DNA of 64,000 nt, from the NCBI GenBank assembly GCA_029265905.1, contig JAJUGR010000010.1, positions 10,791 to 74,790 on the forward strand, in the 5' to 3' direction. Numbering within the stretch: position 1 is the stretch's first letter; each line of letters begins with the position of its first letter. This DNA comes from Sporomusaceae bacterium. Lineage in GTDB: Bacteria; Bacillota; Negativicutes; Acidaminococcales; JAJUGR01. Below are positions 285-30,352 of the stretch, one piece after another. The notes beneath the pieces were generated by a model. It had not been told where the DNA came from and searched no databases. It saw nothing but the letters and a program-made list of their open reading frames with translations. The position numbers and the translations under genes are program-made.

Positions 285-301
285 ACGGAGGAGTGTGGGT
301 T

Positions 302-1174: not shown

Positions 1175-1202
1175 CTATTGTGGATAAAATGCAGGAATGC
1201 TA

Positions 1203-1231
1203 TTGACAAAAAAGAAAACCAAGCATATATT
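1203..1231 (+). promoter_or_regulatory. Promoter candidate for the aromatic amino acid operon leader
   Basis: TTGACA (1203..1208), 17-nt spacer, TATATT (1226..1231). Confidence 0.45.
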
Positions 1232-1237
1232 ATAAAT

Positions 1238-1528: not shown

Positions 1529-1566
1529 GCGGAAAATATAACCGCGTAGAAAGGTAGGATGGTAGT

Positions 1567-4764: not shown

Positions 4765-5942
4765 TGATGCGCTTTGTAACAGCGGGCGAGTCGCACGGCC
4801 CTTGCCTCACGGCGGTGGTGGAAGGGCTTCCGGCGGGGTTGCCGATTGACGAAAACAAATTGAATGAGGCGTTGGCGCGCCGGCAACGCGGCGCTGGGCG
4901 CGGCGGCCGCATGCTGATCGAAAAAGACCAGGTGGAAGTACTCTCTGGTGTTCGGTTTGGCAAAACCTTGGGCAGTCCAGTGACGCTGTCGATAAAAAAC
5001 CGCGACTGGGATAACTGGCGTGAGGAAATGGCGCCGTTCGGCGCACCATCGGATCGCAAACGGGTTTACTGTCCGCGACCTGGGCATGCTGATTTGTCGG
5101 GCGTTTGGAAATATGGCTTTGAAGATGCGCGCCCGGTATTGGAACGGGCCAGCGCCAGGGAAACAGCCGCGAGGACGGCGGCCGGCGCGATTGCCGCCGG
5201 TTTTTTGGAACATGTTGGCATGACGTTTGCCGCTCATGTCCGCGGCATCGGCGGCATCGAGCTGCCGCGTGAGATACAGCCTAGCGTGCAGGAGATTCGT
5301 GCTAAAGCCTTTCCGTCGCCGGTTGGTTGCGTCGATGAAGCGACAGCAGCCAACATGCTCGCCCGGATTGCTGCCGCGCAGGAGGCGGGTGATACGCTGG
5401 GCGGGCTGATTGAAGTGCGCGGGGAAGGACTGGTGCCCGGATTGGGCAGCTACACGCAATGGGATGCCCGTTTAGACGGGCGGCTGGCGCAGGCGATTTC
5501 AGCGATCCCGGCGATCAAGGGTGTTGCCTTCGGCGATGGGTTTGCCTTGGCGGCTGTGCCGGGCAGCGAGGCGCATGACACGATGCAAAAATGCGGCGAG
5601 CGCGGCATTGCGCGGCCGACAAACCATGCCGGCGGCCTGGAAGGCGGCATGACCAACGGCGAGGTGCTGGTTGTGCAGGCGGCGATGAAGCCGATTCCGA
5701 CCCTGATGAAGCCGCTGGCTTCCGTTTCCTTGCTGGACGGGTCCACCACCTATGCTTCGACGGAGCGCAGCGACGCCTGTGCGGTTCCCGCCGCCGCCGT
5801 TGTCGCCGAGATGATGACGGCCTGGGTGATTGCTTGCGCCGTCCGGGAAAAATTCGGCGGCGACTACATTGAAGATGTATTGATAGCGTTGGAACATTAT
5901 AAAGCCCGTATCGCTCAGGGAGGCGCGCCATGGCAGGTGTGA
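4764..5942 (+). CDS. aroC: Chorismate synthase
   Basis: The ORF-track frame starts at 4686, but GGAGGAGGA lies just upstream of ATGATG at 4764 (TAATG overlap with the aroA stop). The N-terminus MMRFVTAGESHG is canonical for AroC. Confidence 0.92.
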   Translation: MMRFVTAGESHGPCLTAVVEGLPAGLPIDENKLNEALARRQRGAGRGGRMLIEKDQVEVLSGVRFGKTLGSPVTLSIKNRDWDNWREEMAPFGAPSDRKRVYCPRPGHADLSGVWKYGFEDARPVLERASARETAARTAAGAIAAGFLEHVGMTFAAHVRGIGGIELPREIQPSVQEIRAKAFPSPVGCVDEATAANMLARIAAAQEAGDTLGGLIEVRGEGLVPGLGSYTQWDARLDGRLAQAISAIPAIKGVAFGDGFALAAVPGSEAHDTMQKCGERGIARPTNHAGGLEGGMTNGEVLVVQAAMKPIPTLMKPLASVSLLDGSTTYASTERSDACAVPAAAVVAEMMTAWVIACAVREKFGGDYIEDVLIALEHYKARIAQGGAPWQV

Positions 5943-7015
5943 ATCAGGTCGTTCGCGTGCCGGTCGCGCTTGGGGAGCGCAGCTACCAGGTTGTTGCCGG
6001 GCCGCTTTCCGATACCTTGCCGGAAACGTTGGCCGCTCTGCGGGCGACGCCGAAAGTGCTGCTTGTGTCGGATGAACGAGTGGCTGGATTGTACGCGGAC
6101 AAAGTGAAGAAGCTCCTTGAGCAATGCGGTTTTTCTGTCCACCTGGCGGTCGTGCCGGTCGGGGAGGAGGCCAAAAGCCTGGCGGTCGCCGGGCGCCTGT
6201 ATGATCAGGCGGTGCGGTGCGAGTTGGATCGCAAAAGCCTGGTCGTGGCCTTGGGCGGCGGCGTTGTCGGCGATGTGGCCGGCTTTGTTGCCGCAACGTA
6301 TTTGCGCGGCCTTCTGTTTATCCAAATACCCACCACGCTGTTGGCACAGGTGGATGCGAGCGTCGGCGGGAAAGTGGCCATCAATCATCCGGCCGGGAAA
6401 AATTTGATCGGCGCCTTTTATCAGCCCAAAGCCGTATTGGCGGACGTCGCTTTTTTTGACACCTTGTCCGAAAGGGATTATCGTTCCGGATTGGCTGAAG
6501 TTGTTAAGCACGCGCTCTTAGACAGCGAAGCGCGCCTGCAATGGCTGGAAGCGAACCATGAGCGCTTGCTTGCGCGCGACCACGCCCTGCTGCAAGAAGT
6601 GGTCGCTTGGTGTTGCGCGCACAAAGCCGGCGTTGTGTCGCGGGATGAAACGGAGCAGGGTGAACGCAAGCATCTTAATCTTGGCCACACTTTCGGCCAC
6701 GCGGTGGAGGCCTGGGGCGGGTTTAACCGCTGGACGCATGGCGAGTCGGTGGCGATTGGATTGGTTGCGGCGCTAAAATTGTCCGTCAAGCATGTTCAAT
6801 GTCCGGCTGCTTTAGTGGCGCGCGTAGCGAAGCTGCTTGAACAACTGGGACTGCCGGCCGGCCTGCCGGCGGGGGAAACGTATGACTTGCAGTCTTACCT
6901 GCACCAGGACAAAAAAATGCTGCAGGATAAAATCCATTGGATTTTGCTTGCCGGCCCCGGCGACGTTCGGATCTGCGCGCTCGACAAAAACGAAAGCGTA
7001 GCCGAACTAATTTGA
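5930..7015 (+). CDS. aroB: 3-dehydroquinate synthase
   Basis: 361 aa with GGGVVGDVAGFVAATYLRG, the metal ligands LNLGHTFGHA and HGESVAIG. Confidence 0.92.
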   Translation: MAGVNQVVRVPVALGERSYQVVAGPLSDTLPETLAALRATPKVLLVSDERVAGLYADKVKKLLEQCGFSVHLAVVPVGEEAKSLAVAGRLYDQAVRCELDRKSLVVALGGGVVGDVAGFVAATYLRGLLFIQIPTTLLAQVDASVGGKVAINHPAGKNLIGAFYQPKAVLADVAFFDTLSERDYRSGLAEVVKHALLDSEARLQWLEANHERLLARDHALLQEVVAWCCAHKAGVVSRDETEQGERKHLNLGHTFGHAVEAWGGFNRWTHGESVAIGLVAALKLSVKHVQCPAALVARVAKLLEQLGLPAGLPAGETYDLQSYLHQDKKMLQDKIHWILLAGPGDVRICALDKNESVAELI

Positions 7016-7068
7016 TGACGGGGCGGGCGGCGCCCGTCGGCTGTTCAACAAAAAAATGCAACAGACTG

Positions 7069-7097
7069 TTGACAAGGCGGTGCAAGGTGGCTATAAT
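7069..7097 (+). promoter_or_regulatory. Consensus sigma-70 promoter for the solitary tRNA-Gly
   Basis: TTGACA (7069..7074), 17-nt spacer, TATAAT (7092..7097), 27 nt upstream of the tRNA 5' end. Confidence 0.65.
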
Positions 7098-7124
7098 AAT
7101 CGTTGTGAGTCACACAATTGAATT

Positions 7125-7199
7125 GCGGAAGTAGCTCAGTGGTAGAGCATCGCCTTGCCAAGGCGAGGGTCGCGAGTTCGAATCTCGTTTTCCGCTCCA
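7125..7199 (+). tRNA. tRNA-Gly (anticodon GCC), CCA encoded
   Basis: 75-nt cloverleaf with acceptor GCGGAAG/CTTCCGC-type pairing, anticodon loop TTGCCAA, T-loop GGTTCGAATC-like (GAGTTCGAATCTC) and a 3' CCA. Confidence 0.95.
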
Positions 7200-7209
7200 G
7201 ACATTTTTC

Positions 7210-7239
7210 AAACCCGGCCGCTGGTCGGGTTTGTTCTTT
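7210..7239 (+). terminator. Rho-independent terminator after tRNA-Gly
   Basis: Stem AAACCCGGCC / GGTCGGGTTT with a short loop, followed by GTTCTTT. Confidence 0.55.
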
Positions 7240-7241
7240 AC

Positions 7242-7270
7242 TTGAGTTTGCCGGGTGGATATGGTATGAT
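7242..7270 (+). promoter_or_regulatory. Promoter candidate for tig
   Basis: TTGAGT (7242..7247), 17-nt spacer, extended -10 TGgTATGAT (7262..7270). Confidence 0.5.
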
Positions 7271-7345
7271 GTTATGAGCACAATGCGTGCAGACCGGGTT
7301 ATTCCGGATTGCATCTAATTAATAACAAGGGGGATATGGTAGTAC

Positions 7346-8635
7346 ATGAAAGTTACAGCCGAAAAAATAGACAAGCATCAGGTGGCGCTGGCAATTGAAG
7401 TGCCGGGCGAAGAGGTAGCCAAATCTTTTCAGAAAGCTTATCAACGGTTGGCGAATAAAGTTAACATTCCCGGTTTCCGCAAAGGCAAAGCGCCGCGCAA
7501 AATCCTGGAAATGCGTCTTGGCGCCGATGTCTTGAAAGAAGAAGCGTTCGAGGTATTGGCTGGTCCCGCTTACCAAGAAGCGCTCAAGCAAGAGAAGCTT
7601 GAACCGGTCAGCCGCCCGGAGGTGGAAGTCGGCGATCTGGAAGACGGCCAACCGCTTTCCTTTAAAGTAACCGTTACGGTAAAACCGACGCCGGTTTTAG
7701 GCGAGTATAAAGGCCTGGTTGTTGAAAAGCCGGTTGCTGAAGTAACTGAGGCGGAAGTGGAAAGCAGCCTCAACACCATGCGTGACCGTCAGGCGCAAAT
7801 GGTTGTTGTCGAAGACGCGACAATTGAAAAAGGTGATTTTGCGGTAATCGATTTTGCCGGCACGATTGACGGTGTACCGTTCAGCGGCGGCGAAGGTAAG
7901 GGCTATCCGCTGGAAATCGGTTCGGGCAGCTTTATTCCCGGCTTTGAAGAGCAATTGATCGGCGTAAAAACCGGCGAGAAGAAAGTTGTCAGCGTCTCCT
8001 TCCCGGAAGACTACCATGTGAAAGAGCTGGCGGGCAAAGCGTCTGAGTTTGCCGTGACGGTGCATGAAGTCAAGCGGAAGCAGTTGCCGGAATTGAACGA
8101 TGACTTTGCCAAAGAAGTCGGTTCGTTTGAAACGTTGGAAGACCTGAAGGCCGACATCAAGGCAAAAATGCTGAACGCAGCCGAAGAGCGTGCGAAGAAC
8201 GAATACGAACGCGCCGTTGTCAAGAAGGCTGTCGACAACGCAACGCTTGAATTGCCGGAAGTAATGATCGATGACCGCGCTGCCAAAATTGTTGAAGACT
8301 TTGCTTACAATTTGGAAAGCCGCGGCATGAAACTCGACATGTACCTTCAATACACAAAAAAGACCCTTTCCGAGCTGAAGGATTCTTACCGTGAGATTGC
8401 GGCCGAGCAAGTTAAGGCCGATTTGGTGATGGAAGAGATCGCTAAAGAGGAAAACCTGGAAGTCACGGAAGCCGACATCAATGCCGAGCTGGAAAGTTTG
8501 GCCGCTCAATACAACATGCCGGTCCAAGACGTGCGCCGCACGCTGGTTGAGCATGGCAACGTGGACGTACTGAAAGGCAATTTGCTGCGCCGCAAGGCTT
8601 CCCAGGTTGTCTTGGAGAGCGCGGTAAACGCTTAA
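7346..8635 (+). CDS. tig: Trigger factor (ribosome-associated PPIase chaperone)
   Basis: 429 aa. N-terminal ribosome-binding motif GFRKGKAP, a central FKBP-like domain (IDFAGTIDGVPFSGGEG) and a C-terminal arm domain. Confidence 0.95.
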   Translation: MKVTAEKIDKHQVALAIEVPGEEVAKSFQKAYQRLANKVNIPGFRKGKAPRKILEMRLGADVLKEEAFEVLAGPAYQEALKQEKLEPVSRPEVEVGDLEDGQPLSFKVTVTVKPTPVLGEYKGLVVEKPVAEVTEAEVESSLNTMRDRQAQMVVVEDATIEKGDFAVIDFAGTIDGVPFSGGEGKGYPLEIGSGSFIPGFEEQLIGVKTGEKKVVSVSFPEDYHVKELAGKASEFAVTVHEVKRKQLPELNDDFAKEVGSFETLEDLKADIKAKMLNAAEERAKNEYERAVVKKAVDNATLELPEVMIDDRAAKIVEDFAYNLESRGMKLDMYLQYTKKTLSELKDSYREIAAEQVKADLVMEEIAKEENLEVTEADINAELESLAAQYNMPVQDVRRTLVEHGNVDVLKGNLLRRKASQVVLESAVNA

Positions 8636-19907: not shown

Positions 19908-21221
19908 ATGCTTGAAAAATTGCTGCGTGAGGCAAAGTGGAGGCAAGTGCGCGTGTCTGATTGGATGAAGTGGCTAAATGAACGCTGTGGCGAGGGACTG
20001 GCCGCCTATCTGGCTGTTTTGGCCTTCTTTTTGCCGTTATCGCCTAATGTGACAAATCACTTGCTTGTCCCTTTGCCGTTTTTGCTGCTGTGGGCGTGGC
20101 GGCAAAAACAGCTGGCGCATCTGACCGAACGGCGGGCGGCCGGCTTGTTTGGCGCCTTCGCGCTTGTCGGGGCGCTGTCATTGGCTGTGTCGCCCCGGTT
20201 TTTTGAAAGCGCCTATAACTACGTGTACCTGATGGGGCGCTATGTCCTAATTTACTTTGCCATTCTGCTGGGAATACAGACTCGCCCGCAGGCGTATCGC
20301 GTGGTGGGCGCCGTTTTGGCCTCTTCGCTGTTTGTAAGCGGCTATGGCATTTACCAGTATTTTCACGGGGTTGCCATGCTGACCTCCGAGTGGGTGGACG
20401 TCGCGCAATTTCCCACGTTGAAAACGCGCGCTTTTTCGACGCTGCAAAACCCGAACTTGCTGGCGGCCTTCCTGCTGATGGTCATGAGCTTGGCGGGCGG
20501 AATTTTCTTTTCCACTGCCAAGCTGCGTTTTCGGCTGCCCTTGCTGCTGGTGGGCGGCGTGGCGCTGTTGTGCCTGATTTTCACTTATTCACGCGGCGCT
20601 TGGGTCAGCCTTGTTTTTATCACGGTCATTTGCGGTGTTTTGTTCAGCCGCCGTTTGCTCTGGGTGCTTGGTCCTGCCTTGGGCGTGATCGGCTTTTTCG
20701 CCCGGGATTTGGTTGTAGCACGCGTGGTTTCCATCTTCAACCCTACTGACACGTCATCCACCTTGCGCATGGCGCTGTGGGAAAGCACCTGGGGCATGAT
20801 TGCCGACCATCCTGTCACAGGCATCGGCTGGGGCGCGTATCAGTTCGTTTATCCGACTTATGACTTTTTCGTTCTGGATCCGGGCACGATCATTTTCCAT
20901 GCCCACAACTTGTATTTAAATATTGCCGCCGAGTTGGGCTTGCCTGGCATCGCATTGTTCTTGCTGGCGCTTTCGGCCCACCTGGCCATCGGTTTTCGGG
21001 TGCTGCGCCATACGCGCATGCCGGAGCAGCGGGGCGTTGTGATCGGTCTGATCGCGATCATCATCGGCGTATTGGTAAACGGCATGACAGATTACGCCTT
21101 GTTCAACATCGAGATTTCGATGTTGTTCTGGCTGCTGGTCGCGCTGCTGGGGGTATTTTCGCGTTGCGCGCTGCGCGAAGGGGTTTCTGAGGAAAATTTA
21201 AACATGGATGCAAAAATGTGA
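19908..21221 (+). CDS. O-antigen ligase / Wzy_C-family polytopic membrane protein
   Basis: 437 aa with about 12 TM segments and a YSRGAWVS motif region typical of the O-antigen polymerase/ligase family. No clear RBS, so the start is uncertain. Confidence 0.6.
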   Translation: MLEKLLREAKWRQVRVSDWMKWLNERCGEGLAAYLAVLAFFLPLSPNVTNHLLVPLPFLLLWAWRQKQLAHLTERRAAGLFGAFALVGALSLAVSPRFFESAYNYVYLMGRYVLIYFAILLGIQTRPQAYRVVGAVLASSLFVSGYGIYQYFHGVAMLTSEWVDVAQFPTLKTRAFSTLQNPNLLAAFLLMVMSLAGGIFFSTAKLRFRLPLLLVGGVALLCLIFTYSRGAWVSLVFITVICGVLFSRRLLWVLGPALGVIGFFARDLVVARVVSIFNPTDTSSTLRMALWESTWGMIADHPVTGIGWGAYQFVYPTYDFFVLDPGTIIFHAHNLYLNIAAELGLPGIALFLLALSAHLAIGFRVLRHTRMPEQRGVVIGLIAIIIGVLVNGMTDYALFNIEISMLFWLLVALLGVFSRCALREGVSEENLNMDAKM

Positions 21222-21248
21222 GAGGAAGGTACAACCTTCCTCTTTTTT
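21221..21248 (+). terminator. Rho-independent terminator
   Basis: AGAGGAAGG (21221..21229) / CCTTCCTCT (21235..21243), then TTTTTT. Confidence 0.8.
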
Positions 21249-21312: not shown

Positions 21313-21341
21313 TTGTGAAAATTCTAACTGAATGGTATGAT
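21313..21341 (+). promoter_or_regulatory. Promoter candidate of the hydrogenase locus, overlapped by a Rex/CRP-like motif TTGTGA-N6-TAACTGAAT
   Basis: TTGTGA (21313..21318) as -35, 17-nt spacer, extended -10 TGgTATGAT (21333..21341). The 21-nt pattern 21313..21333 recurs, identical at all 15 fixed positions, at 30415..30435. Confidence 0.45.
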
Positions 21342-21367: not shown

Positions 21368-21754
21368 TTGGGGTGCAACCTTTTGCTGACACTCGCGGAA
21401 GTATGCGAAGTTCTTGATGCCAGCGTGTTGACGGGTGAAACTTCTTTGCAAATGACCGTCTATACCGCCTGCGGCGCCGATTTAATGAGCGACGTGCTGG
21501 CTTTCACCAAGGAGAGAACGCTGCTATTAACCGGATTGACCAATTTGCAGGTGATCAGAACCGCTGACGTCAGCGATCTGAGCGCGATTGTTTTTGTGCG
21601 CGGCAAGGTACCGCAGTCAGATTTGATTGAAGTAGCCAGGGAAAGAAAAATTCCGCTGCTCTTAACCCGCTATCCTATGTATGAAGCTTGCGGCTTGTTG
21701 TATCAAAAGGGACTGAAAGGCTGTTCGAGTGCGCCTGTGATGCATCATGGGTGA
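21368..21754 (+). CDS. DRTGG-domain protein
   Basis: 128 aa with LLLTGLTNLQVIRTA, characteristic of DRTGG domains. The start codon is uncertain (TTG-rich 5' end). Confidence 0.7.
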   Translation: MGCNLLLTLAEVCEVLDASVLTGETSLQMTVYTACGADLMSDVLAFTKERTLLLTGLTNLQVIRTADVSDLSAIVFVRGKVPQSDLIEVARERKIPLLLTRYPMYEACGLLYQKGLKGCSSAPVMHHG

Positions 21755-22184
21755 ACCGGTGCTGTCGGTCGTTTTTGAGCTGATAGGCGGCGATTTTTCT
21801 TTAGCGGGGGATGCATCGAGCCGTGTCAAGCGTATACTGCAGCAAGCGGGCATTCCCGCTCCTGTCGTGCGGCGGGCAGCGATAGCCGCCTACGAAGCGG
21901 AGATGAACGTTATTATCCATGCCGACGGCGGGACTATGCGATTAGAGATTCATCCTGATGAAACCCGTTTGACGGTTGCCGATCAGGGGCCTGGCATTGC
22001 TGATGTCGGGCAGGCCATGCAGGAAGGGTATTCGACCGCGCCGGATTATGTGCGCGAGATGGGGTTTGGCGCCGGCATGGGGTTGCCAAATATGCGCAAA
22101 TGTGCCGATCGCTTCGATATTGTTTCGGCAGTTGGTGAAGGCACGCGCATTGAGATGGTTTTTCGCCATAACGGGCCAGCGTAG
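21747..22184 (+). CDS. GHKL-type ATPase, SpoIIAB/RsbW-like serine-protein-kinase / anti-sigma-factor fold
   Basis: 145 aa with N-box EAEMNVIIHA, G1 DQGPGI and G2 GFGAGMGLPN. The ATG overlaps the upstream stop by 8 nt. Confidence 0.75.
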   Translation: MGEPVLSVVFELIGGDFSLAGDASSRVKRILQQAGIPAPVVRRAAIAAYEAEMNVIIHADGGTMRLEIHPDETRLTVADQGPGIADVGQAMQEGYSTAPDYVREMGFGAGMGLPNMRKCADRFDIVSAVGEGTRIEMVFRHNGPA

Positions 22185-22217
22185 CAATCACACTGCCAGG
22201 AAGCGTGGTGAACAAAG

Positions 22218-23555
22218 GTGCAGGGGTTTTTTCATTCGGTACGGCTGAATGAGGCGCGTTGCAAGGGCTGTGTCAACTGCATCAAGCACTGCCCGACGGA
22301 AGCGATTCGCATCCGCAACGGCAAGGCGGAGATAACCGAGGAACGATGCATTGATTGCGGCGAGTGCATACGGCAATGCGTCAATCATGCAAAAACGGCT
22401 GTCACTGACAAAATGGCCAATTTGGATCGTTATCGTTATAATGTTGCTTTGCCGGCGCCGTCGCTGTATGCGCAATTTCCGGTCAAGGTTCAGGAAACGG
22501 AGATTGAAACGGCGCTGATTTCGATTGGCTTCGATGATGTGTTTGAAGTGGCCTGGGCAGCTGAACTGGTGTCGGCGGCTATCACTGAATTTCTGAATAG
22601 TCCGATTAGGCAGACGCATAAAAAGCCGCTCCTGTCGTCCGCTTGTCCGGCGGTTGTGCGCCTGTTGCAGGTGCGGTTTCCGGAACTGCTCGACAACATT
22701 GTTCCGCTGCCGCCGCCGGTTGAGGTGGCCGCCATTCAGGCGCGCCGGGACGCGGCAACGAAAACGGGCTTCAAGCCTGAAGAGATCGGCGTTTGGTTTA
22801 TCACGCCCTGTCCGGCCAAAGCAACGACCGTGCGCCACCCGCTAGGCGTAAAAGAGAGCGCTTTGAGCGGCACGATCAGCATGGCCAGGGTCTACGGCGA
22901 AATTCGCCGGGCGATGCGCCATCTGCAGCATCGGCACGACAACCCGAAAGGGTTGGGCCGTTCGGGTGTCGGCTGGGCGGCGCCGGGCGGCGAGACAGAG
23001 GCGGCGCATATTGAAAACGTGCTTGTCGTGCACGGCATCCATGCCGTGGCGGAACTCCTCGAGCAGATGGCGATGAACAAGCTAAACGATTTGGACTATA
23101 TAGAATGTTTGGCGTGCGAAGGCGGCTGCCTTGGGGGGCCGCTGACTGTTGAAAACCGGTTTGTGGCGGAAAAAAACTTAAAAAACCGGATGCGGAACAT
23201 GCCTGAAAAAATTGAACAGGAAAAAGTTGAGCTGTCGCCCGAGGTTCAGCCTGTTGAGCCTCGTTCCATGCTGGCGATGGATAATGACATTGCCGCGGCG
23301 ATGCGGAAAATTGAAGCCATGGATTTAGTGCTGATGCGGTTGCCGGGACTTGATTGCGGCTCCTGCGGATCGCCGAGCTGCAAGGCGCTGGCTGAAGATA
23401 TTGTTCAGGGGCGCGCCAACGAGACTGACTGCGTATTCAGGTTGCGCGAGCGCGTGAAAACTTTGGCGGAAGAGATGGTTGACCTTGCGCAACGGCTGCC
23501 GCCGTCACTTAATCGAACGACAGGGAACGATTTGGAGGATGACGATGAAACTTAA
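22218..23555 (+). CDS. HydS-like [FeFe]-hydrogenase paralog (putative sensory): 2x[4Fe-4S] ferredoxin domain, H-cluster domain and a C-terminal Fe-S motif
   Basis: 445 aa. CKGCVNCIKHCP and CIDCGECIRQC near the N-terminus. H-cluster-like motifs SSACPAVV, ITPCPAKA and IECLACEGGCLGGP. C-terminal LDCGSCGSPSCKAL...DCVF. No PAS domain. Confidence 0.75.
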   Translation: MQGFFHSVRLNEARCKGCVNCIKHCPTEAIRIRNGKAEITEERCIDCGECIRQCVNHAKTAVTDKMANLDRYRYNVALPAPSLYAQFPVKVQETEIETALISIGFDDVFEVAWAAELVSAAITEFLNSPIRQTHKKPLLSSACPAVVRLLQVRFPELLDNIVPLPPPVEVAAIQARRDAATKTGFKPEEIGVWFITPCPAKATTVRHPLGVKESALSGTISMARVYGEIRRAMRHLQHRHDNPKGLGRSGVGWAAPGGETEAAHIENVLVVHGIHAVAELLEQMAMNKLNDLDYIECLACEGGCLGGPLTVENRFVAEKNLKNRMRNMPEKIEQEKVELSPEVQPVEPRSMLAMDNDIAAAMRKIEAMDLVLMRLPGLDCGSCGSPSCKALAEDIVQGRANETDCVFRLRERVKTLAEEMVDLAQRLPPSLNRTTGNDLEDDDET

Positions 23556-23883
23556 TGACTTGCAGACGCTCATACCGCTAACCGTTCATTACGCGCCAGC
23601 GGATTTAACCCAGGAGCTTGAGGGCGCTTATTGCTCCGATTTGCTTAGCAATGTCATGGGACAGGCAAAGCCCGGCATGGTCTGGCTGACAATGCAGTCT
23701 CATCCTAATATCATTGCCGTTGCTTCGCTGCTAGGTTTGGCCGGCATCTTGCTGGTGGGCGGCGCAAAGCCGGAACAAGAGACGATCAATAAGGCGGCCA
23801 GCGAAAACATCCCCTTGTTCTCAGCACCGGCGTCATGCTTTGAAATTGCTGGATTGCTTTACCAGCAAGGACTTAGAGGATGA
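23545..23883 (+). CDS. DRTGG-domain protein (second copy)
   Basis: The ATG at 23545 follows GGAGGA and overlaps the upstream stop. 112 aa with the same small alpha/beta DRTGG-like pattern (ILLVGGAKPEQETINKA). Confidence 0.65.
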   Translation: MKLNDLQTLIPLTVHYAPADLTQELEGAYCSDLLSNVMGQAKPGMVWLTMQSHPNIIAVASLLGLAGILLVGGAKPEQETINKAASENIPLFSAPASCFEIAGLLYQQGLRG

Positions 23884-24647
23884 GAGCCTGGGTTGCCGAC
23901 CTGCACGTCCACAGCTTGCTGTCGCCGTGCGCTGATTTGGAGATGACACCGCACCAAATTGTTTTGGCGGCCGCTGAGGCTGGCATTGACATCGTGGCTA
24001 TCACCGACCACAATGCTTCCGGCAATGTGGCGGCGGCGATCAAGGCTGGCAAACAGGCGGGGGTCGTCGTTTTGCCCGGCATGGAAGTTGAAACCGCGGA
24101 GGAAGCCCACCTGGTTGTGCTGTTTGACAGCCTGGCGGCGCTGGCAGCCTGGCAGGAAATCGTTGATGCGGCTTTGCCGCCGCGCAAAAATGACCCTAGC
24201 CGGTTCGGCGCGCAAATGGTTGTGGACGAAGCTGATGAGTTCGTTGCGTATGAAGAGCGGATGCTCCTGCAACCGACGCATTTGACGGCTCGCCAGGTGA
24301 TAGCTGAAGTCAACAGGCTGGGCGGGCTTTGCATCGCCAGCCATGTCGACAGACCGGCTTACAGCTTGCTGGGCAAGTGGGGACTGCTGCTGCCGGATTG
24401 CGATCTGCATGCCATTGAAATATCGCGGCGGTTTGACTGCTTGACGTATATGGAAGCGAATGCCGCCTTGCTGGGCGGATTTCCCGGCGTCACCAATTCA
24501 GATGCCCATAGATTGATTGATTTTTTCACCGGGCCGAAAACGGTCTGGCATATAGAACGACCGACCATTGAAGAGATGCGCCTTGCATTGCAAGGGCGGG
24601 GGGGACGAAAGGTGGTGTCTGGGGTTTATCTTGAATGGCGGAAGTAA
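23880..24647 (+). CDS. PHP-domain metal-dependent phosphoesterase
   Basis: 255 aa with the N-terminal ADLHVHS motif, ITDHNA and NSDAH, typical of the PHP (polymerase and histidinol phosphatase) family. ATGA overlap with the upstream gene. Confidence 0.8.
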   Translation: MRAWVADLHVHSLLSPCADLEMTPHQIVLAAAEAGIDIVAITDHNASGNVAAAIKAGKQAGVVVLPGMEVETAEEAHLVVLFDSLAALAAWQEIVDAALPPRKNDPSRFGAQMVVDEADEFVAYEERMLLQPTHLTARQVIAEVNRLGGLCIASHVDRPAYSLLGKWGLLLPDCDLHAIEISRRFDCLTYMEANAALLGGFPGVTNSDAHRLIDFFTGPKTVWHIERPTIEEMRLALQGRGGRKVVSGVYLEWRK

Positions 24648-24685: not shown

Positions 24686-25174
24686 ATGAGTGAAACCCAA
24701 AAATGCTGTTGTGGTGGAAAGAATCCCTTAGAACAGCTTGACCAGGCTTTGGTCAAGTATAAGGGCGACAAGGGGACTTTGATTCCGGCTTTGCAGGAGG
24801 CACAAAACATTTATGGCTACTTGTCCAAGGAAGTGCTGGAGCGGATTGCTTGCACCTTGGAAATTCCGATCAGCCAAATTTACGGCGTGGTGACTTTTTA
24901 CTCCCAGTTCCATCTCAACCCGCGCGGCCGGAACATTATTCGCGTCTGCGCAGGCACGGCCTGCCACGTCCGCGGCGGCAAAGCCATTTTGAAAGCAATT
25001 GAGGATAAACTTGGCGTGCCTGCCGGTGCAACGACGTCCGACCTGCGCTTCACAATTGAAACGGTCGCCTGCATTGGGGCTTGCGGTTTAGCGCCGGTCA
25101 TGATGATTAACGATGATACGCATGGCCGTCTGACGCCGGAGCATGTGGTTGAGATTCTCGAGCGCTACAAGTAA
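24686..25174 (+). CDS. hydC: NuoE-like [2Fe-2S] subunit of an electron-bifurcating [FeFe]-hydrogenase (HydC)
   Basis: 162 aa with cluster cysteines VCAGTACHVRG...CIGACGLAP, typical of the 24-kDa NADH dehydrogenase subunit family. Confidence 0.9.
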   Translation: MSETQKCCCGGKNPLEQLDQALVKYKGDKGTLIPALQEAQNIYGYLSKEVLERIACTLEIPISQIYGVVTFYSQFHLNPRGRNIIRVCAGTACHVRGGKAILKAIEDKLGVPAGATTSDLRFTIETVACIGACGLAPVMMINDDTHGRLTPEHVVEILERYK

Positions 25175-25177
25175 CGC

Positions 25178-25729
25178 ATGCGGGACTTATCGCTTCATAT
25201 GCTGGATTTGGCCCAAAACTCCCTGGCTGCGGGGGCGACCTGCCTGACGCTGTCAATTTGTCTTGATCGGGTCGGGGATGCCTTGACGATCCGCCTTGCG
25301 GACGACGGGCGGGGTATGGATTCAGAAACTTGTGCGAATGTGCTCGATCCTTTTTTCACCACAAGAACGACGCGGCGAGTTGGCTTGGGTCTCCCCCTTG
25401 CCGCCATGACGGCGGAAAGGACCGGGGGACGCCTGCTGCTTTCCTCGGCGCCGGGAGAAGGAACGACGGTTGAAATTGAATACCGGTTAAGCCACTGGGA
25501 CTGCCCGCCGGAAGGCGACGTTGCAGAAATGCTGCGGGTGCTTGTCGGCGGACTGGGTGAGACAAGGCTTATTTTTTCCTATGAATGCGACGGGCGGCTG
25601 TTTTCTTTGGACACGCAGCAGTTAGTCGCTGAATTGGGTGAGGTTGCCTGGCTTGCTGATCCGCAGGTACTGGCCTGGTTGGCTGATTACGTGCGGGACG
25701 GTTTGGAAAAAGTGCGAAACGCGCCTTGA
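25178..25729 (+). CDS. GHKL-type ATPase-like protein embedded in the hydrogenase structural operon
   Basis: 183 aa with N-box LDLAQNSLAAGA, G1 DDGRGM and G2 GLGLPL. No DHp/His-phosphotransfer, sensor or TM region. Confidence 0.7.
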   Translation: MRDLSLHMLDLAQNSLAAGATCLTLSICLDRVGDALTIRLADDGRGMDSETCANVLDPFFTTRTTRRVGLGLPLAAMTAERTGGRLLLSSAPGEGTTVEIEYRLSHWDCPPEGDVAEMLRVLVGGLGETRLIFSYECDGRLFSLDTQQLVAELGEVAWLADPQVLAWLADYVRDGLEKVRNAP

Positions 25730-25741
25730 GGAGGAAAAAGA

Positions 25742-26107
25742 ATGAAGACGTTGGAAGATCTGAAAAAATTGCGTGAAAAATTGCAGGCCGATGCGCAAAT
25801 TCGTCACGCTGACGGAATACGGATTATTGTCGGTATGGGCACTTGCGGTATTGCGGCCGGCGCCCGGGAAGTCATGACGGCCGTGCTGGACGAGGTTGCA
25901 AAGCGTGAGCTGAAGAACGTTACTGTCCATCAGACCGGCTGCATCGGCATGTGTGAAAAAGAAGTGCTTGTGGATATCGCCCGTCCGGGTGAGCCGCGTG
26001 TGACGTACGGCAAGGTAAAACCGGCCGATGTGCCCAAGCTTGTTTCGGAGCACGTCGTCAATGGGCGCGTAGTGGAAGAACTGGTAGTGGGGAAAATCGA
26101 GGCTTGA
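25742..26107 (+). CDS. Thioredoxin-like [2Fe-2S] ferredoxin
   Basis: 121 aa with GMGTCGIAAGA...CIGMCEKE, typical of the (2Fe-2S) ferredoxin domain found next to HydB. Confidence 0.8.
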   Translation: MKTLEDLKKLREKLQADAQIRHADGIRIIVGMGTCGIAAGAREVMTAVLDEVAKRELKNVTVHQTGCIGMCEKEVLVDIARPGEPRVTYGKVKPADVPKLVSEHVVNGRVVEELVVGKIEA

Positions 26108-26146: not shown

Positions 26147-27937
26147 ATGCAACATACGAGAGCACATGTTCTGATTTGTGCCGGTACGGGTTGTACCTCT
26201 TCCGGTGCAAAGAAGGTAGAAGCGGCTTTCCAGACGGAATTAGCCAAACAAGGCTTGCAAGACGAGGTCAAGGTTGTTGAGACGGGCTGCCATGGCTTTT
26301 GCGAAATGGGTCCGTTGGTAATTGTCTATCCCGAGGGCGTTTTCTACTGCCGCATGCAGCCGGAAGACGTTGCGGAAGTGGTGGAAAGCCACCTGCTCAA
26401 AGGCCGGATTGTAAAACGGCTGCTGTATCAGGAACCGATTTCGATGGAACGGATTCCTAGCTACAAGGACATTAGCTTTTATAAAAAGCAAATGCGCTAC
26501 GTGCTGGGCAATTGCGGACACATCAACCCGGAGCTCATCGAAGAATACATTGCGGTTGGCGGTTATGAGGCGCTGGGCAAGGCGCTGACGACAATGACTC
26601 CGCAAGGCGTTATCGATGAAATGAAAAAATCGGGCTTGCGCGGTCGTGGCGGCGGTGGTTTCCCGACCGGCATGAAATGGCAGTTTGCCTCTAATTCGCC
26701 TGGCTCGAAAAAATATGTCATCTGCAACGCCGACGAGGGCGATCCCGGTGCCTTTATGGACCGCAGCGTCCTGGAGGGCGACCCGCACAGAATCATTGAA
26801 GGCATGGCGATTTGCGGTTATGCCATCGGCGCTGACGAAGGCTATATTTATTGCCGCGCCGAGTATCCGCTGGCGATCAAGCGCCTGAAAATTGCTATCC
26901 GCCAAGCGGAAGAAATGGGCCTGCTGGGTACGAATATTTTCGGCAGCGAGTTCAATTTCAAATTGAAAATCAAGGAAGGCGCCGGCGCCTTTGTCTGCGG
27001 CGAAGAGACCGCGCTGATGGCTTCGATCGAGGGCAAACGCGGCATGCCGCGTCCGCGTCCGCCGTTCCCGGCCGTGGCTGGCTTGTGGGGCAAGCCGACA
27101 AACATCAACAACGTCGAAACGTTTGCCAACGTACCGCAAATCATCCAAAAAGGCGCTGACTGGTACGCTTCGATCGGTACGGAAAAATCCAAGGGTACAA
27201 AAGTATTCGCGCTGACAGGCAAAATCAACAACACCGGCTTGGCGGAAGTGCCGATCGGCATTACGATGCGCGAGATCATTTATGATATCGGCGGCGGCAT
27301 CAGCGACAACAAAAAATTCAAGGCGGTGCAGATCGGCGGTCCGTCGGGCGGCTGCTTGCCGGAAGAACTGCTGGATATGCCGATTGATTACGACTCCTTG
27401 CTTGCAGTCGGTGCGATGATGGGGTCGGGCGGCCTTGTCGTTATGGACGAGACAACCTGCATGGTTGACGTTGCGAAATTCTTCCTGAATTTCACGCAGT
27501 CCGAGTCCTGCGGCAAGTGTACGCCGTGCCGCGAGGGCACGAAGCGGATGCTGGAAATCCTCACCAGAATTACCGAAGGCGAAGGCAAAGAGGGCGATAT
27601 CGAGCTGTTGGAAGATCTCGGCGCCCAGATTAAAGATACGGCCCTGTGTGGTTTGGGTCAAAGCGCACCGAACCCTGTTTTGAGCACCCTGCGCTATTTC
27701 CGGCATGAGTATGAAGCCCACATCCGCGACAAACGCTGTCCGGCCGGGGCGTGCAGCAAGCTGGCCGCCTACCGGATCACGGAATTGTGCAAAGGCTGCG
27801 GCTTGTGCAAAAAAGTTTGCCCGGTTGGCGCTATTACTGGCGAGGTCAAGGGGCAGCATGTCATTGATCCGGAAGTCTGCATCAAGTGCGGCGCTTGCTT
27901 CACGAAGTGTCCGTTTAAAGCCATCGTTAAGGGTTGA
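26147..27937 (+). CDS. hydB: NuoF-like NAD(P)H/FMN-binding subunit of a bifurcating [FeFe]-hydrogenase (HydB)
   Basis: 596 aa. N-terminal 2Fe-2S domain, FMN/NADH site GLRGRGGGGFPTG, ESCGKCTPCREG, and two C-terminal CxxCxxCxxxCP motifs. Confidence 0.92.
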   Translation: MQHTRAHVLICAGTGCTSSGAKKVEAAFQTELAKQGLQDEVKVVETGCHGFCEMGPLVIVYPEGVFYCRMQPEDVAEVVESHLLKGRIVKRLLYQEPISMERIPSYKDISFYKKQMRYVLGNCGHINPELIEEYIAVGGYEALGKALTTMTPQGVIDEMKKSGLRGRGGGGFPTGMKWQFASNSPGSKKYVICNADEGDPGAFMDRSVLEGDPHRIIEGMAICGYAIGADEGYIYCRAEYPLAIKRLKIAIRQAEEMGLLGTNIFGSEFNFKLKIKEGAGAFVCGEETALMASIEGKRGMPRPRPPFPAVAGLWGKPTNINNVETFANVPQIIQKGADWYASIGTEKSKGTKVFALTGKINNTGLAEVPIGITMREIIYDIGGGISDNKKFKAVQIGGPSGGCLPEELLDMPIDYDSLLAVGAMMGSGGLVVMDETTCMVDVAKFFLNFTQSESCGKCTPCREGTKRMLEILTRITEGEGKEGDIELLEDLGAQIKDTALCGLGQSAPNPVLSTLRYFRHEYEAHIRDKRCPAGACSKLAAYRITELCKGCGLCKKVCPVGAITGEVKGQHVIDPEVCIKCGACFTKCPFKAIVKG

Positions 27938-27963: not shown

Positions 27964-29688
27964 ATGGAGACGGTTACACTTACAGTAGACGGCAAACAGG
28001 TGACGGTGCCTGCGTCTGCGTCTGTATTAGAGGCTTGCAAAGCGGCGGGCATTAAAATCCCCTCCCTTTGCTATCACCCGGAGCTGCGGGCGGAAGGCGC
28101 TTGCCGCGTTTGCGTAGTTGAAATTGAAGGCGTCAGAGCGCTGCCGGCATCCTGCGTTTATCCCGTAGCGGAAGGCATGAAGGTGAAAACAAACACCCAG
28201 CGCGTTCGCAAGGCGCGCAAAACGGTAGTGGAGCTGCTGTTGGCGAACCACCCCGACGACTGCCTTTCTTGCCAACGCAATTTGAATTGCGAGCTGCAAA
28301 CGATTGCCTCTGACCTCGGCATTCGGGAAAAACGCTTCCCGGGTGAGAAGAAGAAGCATCCGCTTGATGCGAACAACCCTTCGCTAGTGCGCGATCAGGA
28401 GAAGTGCATCCTGTGCGGACGCTGCGTGCGTGCTTGCACGGAACGCCAAGGGGTCAACATTTACTCGTTTGCCAACCGCGGCTTCGATACGACGGTCGTG
28501 CCGGCCTTCAACCAAGGCCTCGACCAAGTCCCCTGCACGTACTGCGGGCAGTGCTCTTCCGTCTGCCCGACGGCGGCCATTGTTGAAAAAGACGACACTG
28601 ACCTCGTATTCGCCGCGATCAACGATCCGACGAAGCATGTCATCGTGCAAACCGCTCCGTCCGTCCGCGTGGCGCTGGGCGAAGCGCTGGGCATGAAGCC
28701 GGGCGAGGCTGTTACCGGGCAAATGGTTGCCGCCTTGCGCCGCCTTGGCTTTGACCGCGTCTTTGACACTGACTTCTCCGCCGATCTGACGATCATGGAG
28801 GAGGGCGCTGAGCTGATCCACCGCATTCAAACCGGCGGCGTACTGCCGCAAATCACGTCTTGCAGCCCTGGCTGGGTCAACTTCATCGAACTGCTGTACC
28901 CGGACCTGCTGCCGCATTTGTCGACGGCGAAATCGCCGCAGCAAATGTTCGGCGCGGTGGTCAAGACGTACTACGCTGAAAAAGCCGGCATTGATCCCAA
29001 AGACATCGTTTCCGTTTCCGTCATGCCTTGCACGGCGAAAAAAGCGGAAGCCATCCGCCCGGAAATGCGCGACAGCGGTTACCAGGACGTTGATTACGTA
29101 TTGACAACGAGAGAATTGGGGCGTATGATTCGAGAAGCGGGCATTGAATTTGCTCAGCTGCCGGCAGAAGAATTTGACGCACCGATGGGCATCTCCACCG
29201 GCGCCGGCGTCATCTTCGGGTCGACCGGCGGCGTTATGGAAGCGGCGCTGCGGACCGTGGCGGAAGTGCTGACGGGCAAGGAGCTCGGCTGCATCGAATT
29301 CCAAGCCGTCCGTGGTTTGCAGACAATGCGTGAAGCGACCGTGCAGGTTGGCGATTTGCCGGTAAAAGTGGCAATCGTCAACACCCTGAAGGAAGCCAGA
29401 AACATGATGGAACGCGTTCGCAAAGGCGAAGCCGATTACCATTTCATCGAAATCATGGCTTGCCCGGGCGGCTGCATCAGCGGCGGCGGGCAACCGGTGC
29501 CGGTCAATCCGGACATCCGCAAAGCGAGACAAGCGGCGATTTACGAATGCGATCGCGATGCTGTTTTGCGCAAATCGCATGACAACCCAGCCATTAAGGA
29601 ACTGTACGACACCTGGCTTGGCAAACCGATGGGGGAAAAGGCCCATCACTTGCTGCACACGCACTATCATCCGCAAACACGCGGATAA
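27964..29688 (+). CDS. hydA: [FeFe]-hydrogenase catalytic subunit (HydA, group A multimeric type)
   Basis: The ATG at 27964 follows AAAAGGAG. N-terminal 2Fe-2S plus His-ligated and 2x4Fe-4S domains. H-cluster motifs TSCSPGW, MPCTAKKAE and EIMACPGGCISGGGQP. Confidence 0.92.
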   Translation: METVTLTVDGKQVTVPASASVLEACKAAGIKIPSLCYHPELRAEGACRVCVVEIEGVRALPASCVYPVAEGMKVKTNTQRVRKARKTVVELLLANHPDDCLSCQRNLNCELQTIASDLGIREKRFPGEKKKHPLDANNPSLVRDQEKCILCGRCVRACTERQGVNIYSFANRGFDTTVVPAFNQGLDQVPCTYCGQCSSVCPTAAIVEKDDTDLVFAAINDPTKHVIVQTAPSVRVALGEALGMKPGEAVTGQMVAALRRLGFDRVFDTDFSADLTIMEEGAELIHRIQTGGVLPQITSCSPGWVNFIELLYPDLLPHLSTAKSPQQMFGAVVKTYYAEKAGIDPKDIVSVSVMPCTAKKAEAIRPEMRDSGYQDVDYVLTTRELGRMIREAGIEFAQLPAEEFDAPMGISTGAGVIFGSTGGVMEAALRTVAEVLTGKELGCIEFQAVRGLQTMREATVQVGDLPVKVAIVNTLKEARNMMERVRKGEADYHFIEIMACPGGCISGGGQPVPVNPDIRKARQAAIYECDRDAVLRKSHDNPAIKELYDTWLGKPMGEKAHHLLHTHYHPQTRG

Positions 29689-29698
29689 CGGGAGTGGA

Positions 29699-30352
29699 AT
29701 GCTGTTGAAGAAGATGATGCTTGCATCTCGCGCGACGGTTGATCGCCTGCCGATTTATTACCGCTCGCTGAAGGAAGCTATGCAGGAAGGGATCGAGATC
29801 ATCTCCTCGGAAGAACTCGGGCGTCGCATTGGTGTGACGCCCGAGCAAATCCGCAAGGATCTCTCATCCTTCGGCGAATTTGGGAAAAAAGGCGTAGGGT
29901 ACTACGTAAGCGAGCTAAAACGGAATATCGGTGAAATTCTGGGCTTGCATAAGCAATGGAACATTGCTATTGTAGGTACAGGGCATCTGGGATGGGCGCT
30001 CGCGCATTATCGGAATTTTTCCGAGATGGGTTTTTTGATCAAGGCGCTGTTCGATGTCGATCCTGCCAAACAAGGACTGGAAATTGACGGTGTCGCGATT
30101 GAACCGATTAATAAATTAGCCGAAGTGGTGGCGCGCGAACAGATTCACATTGCGATTGTGGCCGTACCAAGCGAGGTAGCCCAAGAAATGACAAATGCCC
30201 TTATCGCTGCGGGCGTGCACGGTATTTGGAATTTTGCTCCAGTCAAACTGGTTGTTCCCGACAACGTTTCGATTGTCAATGCCGATTTGTCCGCCGAACT
30301 GGCGACAATTTCTTATCAACTTGTCCACCGAGACGCAACGCAAAAAGTTTGA
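29699..30352 (+). CDS. rex: Redox-sensing transcriptional repressor Rex
   Basis: The ATG at 29699 lies 10 nt after the hydA stop; the ORF-track start at 29558 overlaps hydA. N-terminus ATVDRLPIYYRSL, then FGEFGKKGVGYYV and Rossmann motif VGTGHLG. Confidence 0.92.
   Translation: MLLKKMMLASRATVDRLPIYYRSLKEAMQEGIEIISSEELGRRIGVTPEQIRKDLSSFGEFGKKGVGYYVSELKRNIGEILGLHKQWNIAIVGTGHLGWALAHYRNFSEMGFLIKALFDVDPAKQGLEIDGVAIEPINKLAEVVAREQIHIAIVAVPSEVAQEMTNALIAAGVHGIWNFAPVKLVVPDNVSIVNADLSAELATISYQLVHRDATQKV

Follow-up and report, generated by a model that had tools for sequence, protein, structure and literature searches.

Bifurcating hydrogenases of the HydABC type set the H2 partial pressure and the balance of NADH and ferredoxin in fermenters, syntrophs and acetogens. 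We know of no established account of how cells sense H2 with [FeFe]-type sensors. Since about 2010-2012, the proteins of class M2e, or group D, have been referred to in the literature as 'monomeric sensory hydrogenases' that are encoded upstream of trimeric bifurcating hydrogenases and near kinases and phosphatases. One of them, TamHydS of Thermoanaerobacter mathranii, has a high affinity for H2 and a low turnover, and its secondary structure changes upon exposure to H2 (PMC8163306, PMC13104023). Its C-terminal cluster can be reduced only with great difficulty. In the group D literature of 2020 and 2026 the signalling route and the native partners are stated as not known: the 2020 paper (PMC8163306) asks how group D proteins pass on a signal without a PAS domain, and the 2026 TamHydS paper says the same of the native interaction partners. 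The system considered here, a group D-like hydrogenase paralog (HydS) with a set of candidate signalling proteins next to hydABC, is encoded in 64,000 nucleotides (nt) of contig JAJUGR010000010.1, hereafter the window.

Five tightly packed genes on the + strand, directly 5' of hydC, encode a DRTGG protein (DRTGG1), a GHKL protein (GHKL1), HydS, a second DRTGG protein (DRTGG2) and a PHP protein. The 445-amino-acid (aa) HydS very probably belongs to group D (M2e) of the putative sensory [FeFe]-hydrogenases, the class of TamHydS. The most likely reading, which we put at about even odds, is that this region makes up the regulatory half of a conserved hydrogenase block of ten genes and serves as an H2-responsive ATPase/phosphoesterase switch that acts post-translationally. 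The locus adds no new class, as the system is known and widespread and its mechanism is unsolved; the new points are a sixth member, GHKL2, and three natural fusions that each pair two of the proteins. Throughout, plain coordinates are window positions and L-numbers denote related loci used for comparison. A scan of one genome per species returned at least 563 relatives, of which the best 80 loci were analysed.

HydS and the sensory hydrogenases

HydS (22218..23555) matches the Pfam profiles for a Fer4 dicluster, Fe_hyd_lg_C (110.7 bits) and an FeS domain (PF04060, 48.7 bits). Every cysteine of its two N-terminal [4Fe-4S] motifs (C15/18/21/25 and C44/47/50/54) is invariant in 28 homologs, and the four H-cluster ligands, C143, C198, C300 and C304, are all kept and invariant in the alignment. 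The H-cluster motifs read SSACPAVV, ITPCPAKA and LACEGGCLGGP, and HydA of the window reads TSCSPGW, MPCTAKK and MACPGGC at the same places. At the positions of C299, M353 and M497 of CpI, HydS has A142, T196 and L298; the relay Cys is thus lost, and a hydroxyl residue and a Leu stand at the other two positions. The C-terminal motif Cx2Cx4Cx16C is formed by C380-x2-C383-x4-C388-x16-C405, and the protein ends about 40 residues past this last cluster Cys. With an offset of one residue, D379-C380, D404-C405, K36 and K59 of HydS equal D378-C379, D403-C404, K35 and K58 of TamHydS.

No PAS domain was matched in HydS by a scan that did detect PAS in the group C paralogs of L058 and L075. A search of the PDB returned no close solved relative, the best matches being group A enzymes at about 1e-18. 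In a neighbor-joining (NJ) tree of 375 columns, from which TamHydS itself and group B were left out, HydS fell among group D proteins, including the Thermoanaerobacterium ortholog, and apart from both the PAS-bearing group C and the group A HydA. The E values of a phmmer search from HydS followed the same order, at about 1e-130 to group D loci, 1e-32 to the PAS types and 1e-9 to 1e-17 to HydA. Assignment to group D is made because of the domain architecture, A142/T196/L298, the Cx2Cx4Cx16C motif, the Asp and Lys matches and the placement in the NJ tree. A catalytic enzyme of group A or B was rejected on the NCBIfam scan, the PDB search and the NJ tree, and a group C (M2f) sensor was rejected for want of the C-terminal PAS domain.

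A preliminary description of this DNA, made from the sequence alone, had singled out the 445-aa protein as a HydS-type paralog without PAS. HydS bears every published sequence hallmark of group D/M2e, the HydS and HydA motifs are exactly as that description quoted them, and the phylogenetic placement that it proposed puts HydS in group D and not with the catalytic hydrogenases. The description also read the system as a non-canonical phospho-switch with an H2 sensor. The sensory-hydrogenase part of this view agrees with the literature, in which group D had already been named and biochemically studied and its gene neighbourhood of 'kinases/phosphatases' had been read as H2 sensing. The remark that the mechanism had not been worked out agrees with the 2020 and 2026 literature on group D.

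Partner proteins and natural fusions

DRTGG1 (21368..21754, 128 aa) matches the Pfam DRTGG profile at 28.0 bits, above the cutoff of 25.2, and DRTGG2 (23545..23883, 112 aa) falls slightly under it at 24.6 bits. When the two families were aligned with hhalign, the probability was 99.8% (E 1.8e-28), and by this comparison the proteins are clear paralogs. The invariant residues are D38, S41, T55, T65, K80 and G109 in DRTGG1 and Y29, D32, L33, L34, S35, W47, T49 and N55 in DRTGG2. Both paralogs thus have an invariant Ser (S41, S35) within D-L-[ML]-S at a strand-to-helix junction, and an invariant Thr (T55, T49). In public records, the Thermoanaerobacterium DRTGG orthologs (L023, 8176-8529 and 10280-10609) are labelled 'transcriptional regulator' or 'predicted transcriptional regulator containing CBS domains', and they have no helix-turn-helix (HTH) domain. 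Such labels on DRTGG genes are probably annotation artefacts, and the same mislabelling is probably the origin of the 'AraC family regulator' that is said to flank TamHydS.

GHKL1 (21747..22184, 145 aa; HATPase_c_2, 47.7 bits) has a complete and invariant set of ATP-binding boxes: the N box (E50/N54), G1 (D79xGxG83), G2 (G106-G112) and G3 (G132-T133). In a PDB profile search its matches included SpoIIAB (2e-12) and RsbW (5e-5). The GHKL1 part of an AlphaFold model of a fused ortholog superimposed on SpoIIAB with a template modeling (TM) score of 0.85 and a root-mean-square deviation of 2.0 in Foldseek, with TM scores of up to 0.86 among SpoIIAB and RsbW structures. These comparisons place GHKL1 in the kinase/anti-sigma branch of the superfamily rather than in the clamp-ATPase branch, and it is a SpoIIAB/RsbW-like putative Ser/Thr kinase. 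GHKL2 (25178..25729, 183 aa; HATPase_c, 54.8 bits) is a histidine-kinase-type ATP-binding domain without DHp. Its residues D10/N14, D42xGxG46, G69-L70-G71 and G95 are invariant, and T96 is conserved at 90% or more. A conserved region of about 80 aa follows at its C-terminus, for which a single-sequence model (pLDDT 45) was too poor to allow classification.

With respect to two-component signalling, the HisKA/DHp domain was found in neither GHKL protein and a receiver partner was found nowhere in the block. Canonical histidine kinases were rejected as an identity for GHKL1 and GHKL2, as neither has HisKA. HydDB has a putative sensory subgroup labelled 'histidine kinase-linked'. If HydDB C1 is the same as group D, this label looks like a misnomer because neither GHKL protein has HisKA and the block has no receiver.

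The PHP protein (23880..24647, 255 aa) belongs to a metal-dependent phosphoesterase family (PF02811, 40.4 bits). Residues D7, H9, H11, S15, C17, D43, H44, N45, E69, E74, H77, H155, D208 and H210 are invariant in 26 orthologs. Among them, D7, H9, H11, D43, H44, E69, H77, H155, D208 and H210 make up a complete set of His/Asp/Glu metal ligands across the four PHP motifs, and S15-P16-C17 is invariant as well. Its nearest solved relatives in the PDB profile search were the PHP domain of EndoQ (2.6e-15), then nucleotide phosphoesterases of the TrpH/RNase AM type, and TM0559; its NCBIfam matches were a 3',5'-bisphosphate nucleotidase and RNase RNM. It is not a full EndoQ, given a score of 15.5 bits against a cutoff of 326.6 for TIGR00375 and a length of 255 aa against about 400, and the alignment is confined to the PHP domain (residues 6-243 against EndoQ 5-231). 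No protein-tyrosine phosphatase of the CpsB/YwqE type was among the PDB profile matches with E <= 0.01, which lowers the prospect, as judged from homology, that PHP acts on proteins.

How these proteins might work together is suggested by natural fusions between them. DRTGG1 and GHKL1 are encoded by single open reading frames (ORFs) in L008, L012 and L021, and a search with the two sequences concatenated returned over 115 clusters, with proteins some 270 aa long, that reach a query coverage of 95-97% and have DRTGG1 at the N-terminus of the kinase. The AlphaFold model of one such ortholog (pLDDT 87) shows a disordered linker between two well-folded domains. In Foldseek its N-terminal, DRTGG1 half matched 2ioj (AF1212; TM score 0.78) and 3l31, the DRTGG domain of a CBS-pyrophosphatase. 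HydS is fused to DRTGG2 in 7 of the 150 best DRTGG2 representatives at 50% identity, which are proteins of 515-563 aa with the order Fer4-Fe_hyd_lg_C-FeS-DRTGG. The DRTGG domain in these begins straight after the helix of the C-terminal cluster, in the position that PAS occupies in group C, and the invariant Y-x-S-D-L-L-S and W-x-T motifs are kept. The HydS::DRTGG2 gene is followed by PHP in L081, is preceded by DRTGG1 and GHKL1 in L082 and L083, and is preceded by GHKL1 alone in L085/86. A third fusion, of PHP and GHKL2, occurs in L085 as a protein of 437 aa, with PHP at residues 3-241 (9e-55) and GHKL2 at residues 245-420 (7e-43). No fusion of DRTGG2 and PHP was found among the 120 best matches. 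The fusions suggest that the proteins of the module form three functional pairs, namely DRTGG1 with GHKL1, HydS with DRTGG2, and PHP with GHKL2.

The ten-gene block and its surroundings

The gene order DRTGG1-GHKL1-HydS-DRTGG2-PHP-HydC-GHKL2-HydD-HydB-HydA recurs in most of the 80 loci and was found in Negativicutes, Clostridia, Thermoanaerobacterales, Christensenellales, Oscillospiraceae and a few bins from outside Bacillota. The order was mapped by phmmer with the eleven proteins of the window, on gene calls that were crude (stop-to-stop ORFs with greedy selection). Where enough flanking sequence was available, GHKL1 was adjacent in 70 of 72 loci, DRTGG1 in 69 of 72, DRTGG2 in 68 of 75 and PHP in 67 of 75. 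The HydC-to-HydA genes lie beside the module in 35-40 of 56 such loci, which bears out the co-occurrence with hydABC proposed in the preliminary description. Given these counts, the gene arrangement cannot be put down to chance. GHKL2 is present in 40/56 loci. It lies directly 3' of PHP in the rearranged loci L047, L051, L058, L065, L066, L069, L072 and L079. By this conservation, GHKL2, which sits between hydC and hydD, is a sixth conserved member of the module; the preliminary description had the five genes right and their membership incomplete. HydD, which is homologous to the N-terminus of HydB, is always 3' of GHKL2. DRTGG2 and PHP are lost jointly in all six cases of loss, and GHKL1 with HydS is the sole invariant core of the module.

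Approximately 30% of the loci have the module without an adjacent HydABC. Their neighbours vary (CN_hydrolase, WG repeats, CheW, an OmpR-type regulator, GGDEF-EAL), and no conserved output gene was found among them. In L020 (7954-11037), the gene that follows a HydABC-free five-gene module encodes a seven-transmembrane (7TM)-GAF-GGDEF-EAL protein of about 1030 aa, a domain set for cyclic-di-GMP turnover. L032 (12677-15796) has the same layout with a gene of 1039 aa; the domain scan covered L020 only. In L082 (4737-11987), the genes that come after DRTGG1, GHKL1, HydS::DRTGG2, PHP and GHKL2 encode both subunits, small and large, of a [NiFe]-hydrogenase of the Mvh/Vhu type, and a HycI protease. 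Beside these are divergent genes for Hdr-like proteins (CCG, Fer4) and genes for NuoE/NuoF, and no full-length HydA was found in the stretch of L082 that was fetched. Other variants include a second HydC-HydB-HydA set directly 5' of the module in L034, L035, L053 and L054 (about 300-7600), with a HydB of 1000-1090 aa and without GHKL2 or HydD. A second group-D-like paralog of 487 aa (L002, 9875-11338), from the same metagenome-assembled genome as L001, has no partner genes; its neighbours are a cation-efflux gene on one side and a DUF364 gene on the other.

A PAS-bearing group C paralog and a SpoIIE-type PP2C are encoded beside the group D block on the - strand of L058 (1042-3922) and L075 (2205-5043). 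To judge from their domains, group C and group D putative sensors coexist at one locus in these two cases. Group C pairs with PP2C and group D with a SpoIIAB-like kinase; thus, both sensor classes appear to be wired to parts for Ser/Thr phospho-signalling.

In the window, the block has an upstream boundary formed by an intrinsic-terminator-like hairpin at 21220..21244 (an 11-bp stem followed by a T-run, ending an upstream Wzy_C-type gene) and a promoter-like site at 21313..21341 (TTGTGA-17-TATGAT with a TG extension), both on the + strand. The packing of the five genes that the preliminary description reported, with its overlaps and the short gap to hydC, was confirmed by the ORF map and a reading of the junctions. 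The ATG of GHKL1 at 21747 overlaps the DRTGG1 stop codon (TGA, 21752-21754) by 8 nt. The ATG of DRTGG2 at 23545, which has a GGAGGA ribosome-binding site 5' of it, overlaps that of HydS (TAA, 23553-23555) by 11 nt, an arrangement that indicates translational coupling of DRTGG2 to HydS. DRTGG2 and PHP share a 4-nt ATGA overlap at 23880-23883, and the spacer of 38 nt between PHP and hydC carries AAGGAG, a ribosome-binding site, ahead of the hydC ATG at 24686. The start of DRTGG1 may be TTG 21383, which is 9-12 nt after a GGGG stretch, rather than 21368, as both the orthologs and the profile alignment start only at residue 7 of the protein as annotated. Profile searches returned the same domain series as the preliminary description (DRTGG, GHKL, Fer4/Fe_hyd_lg_C, DRTGG, PHP), and no PAS, STAS, receiver or HTH domain was found in the five proteins by the Pfam and NCBIfam scans.

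The remainder of the block, also on the + strand, comprises HydC (24686..25174), a NuoE-like [2Fe-2S] subunit (2Fe-2S_thioredx, 184 bits; NuoE in NCBIfam); GHKL2; a HydD-like thioredoxin-like [2Fe-2S] ferredoxin of 121 aa (25742..26107; 2Fe-2S ferredoxin in NCBIfam); HydB (26147..27937), a NuoF-like FMN/NADH subunit with Complex1_51K and NADH_4Fe-4S domains; and HydA (27964..29688), a catalytic group A [FeFe]-hydrogenase of the bifurcating type. HydA scored 910.8 bits, against a cutoff of 765, for the NCBIfam family FeFe_hydrog_A6 ('NADH-dependent [FeFe] hydrogenase') and matched HydA1 of the solved HydABC complexes at 1e-196. In its L1 motif TSCSPGW (28855-28875, residues 298-304), a Ser stands at the position of CpI Cys300 (+1 offset), which is a ligand of the H-cluster [4Fe-4S]. 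TSCSPGW is found in 42/44 HydA orthologs beside group D modules; the solved HydA1 (8a6t) has TSCCPSW. In the literature this motif was found only in a genome study of Melainabacteria, where it was treated as a deviation.

Directly 3' of hydA is a gene for Rex, the NADH/NAD+-sensing transcriptional repressor (29699..30352, + strand; NCBIfam Rex, 268 bits against a cutoff of 126). Rex occupies the same position in the Negativicutes loci L003, L004, L005 and L077, lies further downstream in L001, and is upstream of the module in L008, L012 and L021. A Rex-operator-like sequence with 3 mismatches (21313-21330) overlaps the -35 region of the only promoter-like site upstream of the module. Rex-like boxes within the window numbered 7 against 5.8 expected, which is not significant alone; boxes with up to 3 mismatches within 300 nt 5' of DRTGG1 occurred in 20 of 73 loci (27%), against 7.8% of random windows, and four loci (L035, L037, L038 and L074) have perfect boxes 5' of the module. 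Because such boxes are enriched across loci, the site in the window gains weight, and transcription of the block is plausibly under Rex. Given a Rex gene after hydA and a Rex-like half-site on the promoter of the module, transcriptional control need not come from the module itself. The immediate flanks are heterogeneous and the upstream neighbours differ widely among 71 loci. No sigma factor, STAS antagonist or conserved HTH protein was found among the 25 commonest families per flank in a census of 71 upstream and 52 downstream genes, nor was a sigma factor or STAS antagonist found in the block, and Rex is an occasional neighbour, with three cases among the downstream genes, to which the phmmer mapping adds Negativicutes and Tepidanaerobacter-type loci. 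This agrees with the earlier statement that the module has no recognisable output domain.

Mode of action and comparison with known systems

One question is how an H2 signal could be passed on by a sensor that lacks PAS. A sensing or regulatory role for the module seems fairly probable; its detailed mechanism can be outlined only tentatively. H2 at the H-cluster would alter the conformation of HydS, as published for TamHydS. The two DRTGG domains, if the fusions are a guide, would be adaptors or transducers that work at the C-terminal region of HydS and link it to two arms, one with a kinase (DRTGG1-GHKL1) and one with a phosphoesterase (DRTGG2-PHP-GHKL2). These antagonistic arms would set the phosphorylation or nucleotide state of a target, and the output would be post-translational tuning of the neighbouring NAD-linked electron-bifurcating hydrogenase. 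An output of this kind is proposed because no DNA-binding partner is conserved, and transcription would be handled apart from the module, probably by Rex. In its full form, the idea is that the DRTGG proteins are the signal transducers of PAS-less group D sensors and that HydS, the two DRTGGs, the SpoIIAB-like kinase and PHP with its own GHKL make up an undescribed push-pull switch, H2-responsive and post-translational; we consider this possible but rather doubtful. Should the module act on the enzyme and not on transcription, it would give a rare example of a hydrogenase that is controlled post-translationally.

In favour of an H2-responsive switch, the ATP motifs of both GHKL proteins and the metal ligands of PHP are intact, as far as sequence can tell. 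The HydABC-free loci, the NiFe neighbour in L082 and the pairing of group C with PP2C argue for a regulator rather than a structural subunit. Several observations weigh on the other side. The roles of the partner proteins are inferred from sequence comparison and fusions, of which the HydS::DRTGG2 proteins come from metagenome contigs and PHP::GHKL2 from one lineage only. DRTGG1 is kept in 4 loci that have neither DRTGG2 nor PHP and is itself missing from L057, L063 and L085; the pairing of DRTGG1 with DRTGG2 is not obligatory, since either protein can be missing. The 80 loci are a top-scoring subset biased toward Bacillota. For TamHydS, the C-terminal cluster showed no shift in redox state with H2 (2026 paper), and a secondary citation reports that knockout of the hyd cluster in T. 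saccharolyticum left the H2 yield unchanged.

The preliminary description had proposed a relay that resembles partner switching, in which GHKL1 adds phosphate to Ser/Thr of the DRTGG proteins, PHP removes it and DRTGG takes the role of STAS. Such a relay is conceivable, although we would not expect it: the likeness of GHKL1 to SpoIIAB/RsbW in sequence and fold, the invariant Ser and Thr in both DRTGGs, the joint loss of DRTGG2 and PHP, and the pairing of group C sensors with a PP2C phosphatase all speak for it, but fusion of DRTGG1 to the kinase and of DRTGG2 to the sensor would be unusual for freely exchanging substrates, and no relation between DRTGG and STAS could be detected. It is because of these fusions that the DRTGGs are taken as adaptors or transducers rather than as simple phospho-targets, with the invariant Ser of both paralogs keeping the target idea alive. 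A phosphatase acting on proteins was an assumption of that description, and PHP is instead nearest to nucleic-acid and nucleotide phosphoesterases, with no match to a PHP-type protein phosphatase. The relay and adaptor models are compatible, and DRTGG2 could be both. Of the earlier interpretation as a whole, the sensory hydrogenase, the link to hydABC and the missing output domain have stood, and the mechanism is only partly supported. Of the two options that it gave, tuning of the hydrogenase or of its transcription, the first is the one favoured here, and transcription is plausibly under the neighbouring Rex.

The kinship of PHP, both in solved structures and in NCBIfam, with enzymes of nucleotides and nucleic acids raises another explanation, in which a messenger of nucleotide or dinucleotide type (pAp-, Ap4A- or cyclic-nucleotide-like) is hydrolysed by PHP and bound by the DRTGGs and the GHKLs sense ATP, so that the module reports energy or redox charge and is not a protein phospho-relay. 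DRTGG does occur in nucleotide-regulated CBS-pyrophosphatases and in SpxR-type regulators, and a GGDEF-EAL gene lies 3' of the module in L020, with the same layout in L032. We regard this explanation as distinctly unlikely, as the block has no conserved cyclase or synthetase, the DRTGGs have no defined ligand site and the GGDEF-EAL neighbour was scanned in one locus. A true anti-sigma system, with GHKL1 holding a sigma factor that is encoded elsewhere and HydS and the DRTGGs releasing it on H2, would give a transcriptional output. Public records do call the GHKL1 family an anti-sigma regulatory factor, and its best matches in sequence and structure are SpoIIAB, RsbW and UsfX. Nevertheless, this is very unlikely: GHKL1 scored 54.4 bits against a cutoff of 135 for the anti-sigma F equivalog (spIIAB, TIGR01925), the commonest families of the 123 flanking genes include no sigma or STAS gene, and members of the GHKL1 family are also found in lineages that do not sporulate and beyond Bacillota. 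Finally, the six proteins might not be a sensor but ATP-dependent machinery that assists, activates or maintains the bifurcating hydrogenase, or else an alternative low-rate hydrogenase that feeds it electrons. Two GHKL ATPases, the difficulty of reducing the C-terminal cluster, the low rates at which TamHydS turns over H2 and the conservation of the block with a specific HydABCD subtype (TSCSPGW HydA + GHKL2 + HydD) are consistent with such a function, which we hold to be highly improbable in view of the loci that lack an adjacent HydABC, the NiFe hydrogenase beside the module in L082 and the place of GHKL1 outside the clamp-ATPase branch. Moreover, purified HydABC(D) is reportedly active without the module proteins, going by Soboh 2004 and the solved complexes.

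An H2-responsive, post-translational switch built from these parts would differ from each of the systems to which it can be compared. Like SpoIIAB-SpoIIAA and RsbW-RsbV, the module has a compact Bergerat-fold kinase (GHKL1) that has all ATP boxes and no DHp, with a phosphoesterase encoded alongside. Unlike them, it lacks a STAS antagonist, a sigma factor and PP2C, its kinase is paired or fused with DRTGG, and its input is a hydrogenase paralog. The regulatory [NiFe]-hydrogenase system HoxBC-HoxJ-HoxA (HydDB 2b) likewise has a low-activity paralog that is encoded with its presumed target enzyme and is coupled to a GHKL-type kinase; however, its metal centre is different, HoxJ is a canonical PAS-histidine kinase with a DNA-binding response regulator, and the module has no HisKA/DHp, receiver or DNA-binding output. 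The CBS-DRTGG insert of family II pyrophosphatase (3L2B/3L31) and AF1212 (2IOJ) share the DRTGG fold and a regulatory, oligomerising context, whereas each DRTGG of the module is either a separate protein or part of a fusion with a GHKL kinase or hydrogenase, lacks CBS and has its own D-L-[ML]-S and Thr motifs.

Closer relatives are found among the [FeFe] sensors. Group C (M2f; HydDB C3, 'phosphatase-linked'), which includes TmHydS, R. albus HydS and T. saccharolyticum HfsB with HfsC/HfsD, has the same N-terminal clusters, a modified H-domain and a C-terminal four-Cys cluster, and it is also tied to bifurcating hydrogenases and Ser/Thr phospho-signalling proteins. It differs in having a fused PAS and a PP2C phosphatase, in place of which this module has DRTGG and a PHP-type phosphoesterase. 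The closest system is that of TamHydS. Both HydS and TamHydS have two Fer4 motifs, an H-domain and a Cx2Cx4Cx16C domain without PAS; both have lost the C299 relay Cys and have a hydroxyl residue at M353 and a Leu at M497; and both have conserved Asp and Lys residues near the clusters and are encoded upstream of a trimeric bifurcating hydrogenase. HydS is about 48% identical to the Thermoanaerobacterium ortholog, which stood in for TamHydS in this comparison. A literature search for DRTGG with hydrogenase and for kinases or phosphatases of HydS/HydABC operons found no paper on the accessory proteins. The DRTGG, PHP and GHKL2 partners and their fusions, which the TamHydS papers do not describe, are what sets this module apart. 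They name concrete candidate partners for the TamHydS system, namely DRTGG2 at the C-terminus of HydS, DRTGG1 with GHKL1, and PHP with GHKL2, and so turn the question of group D signalling into specific predictions of protein-protein interactions.

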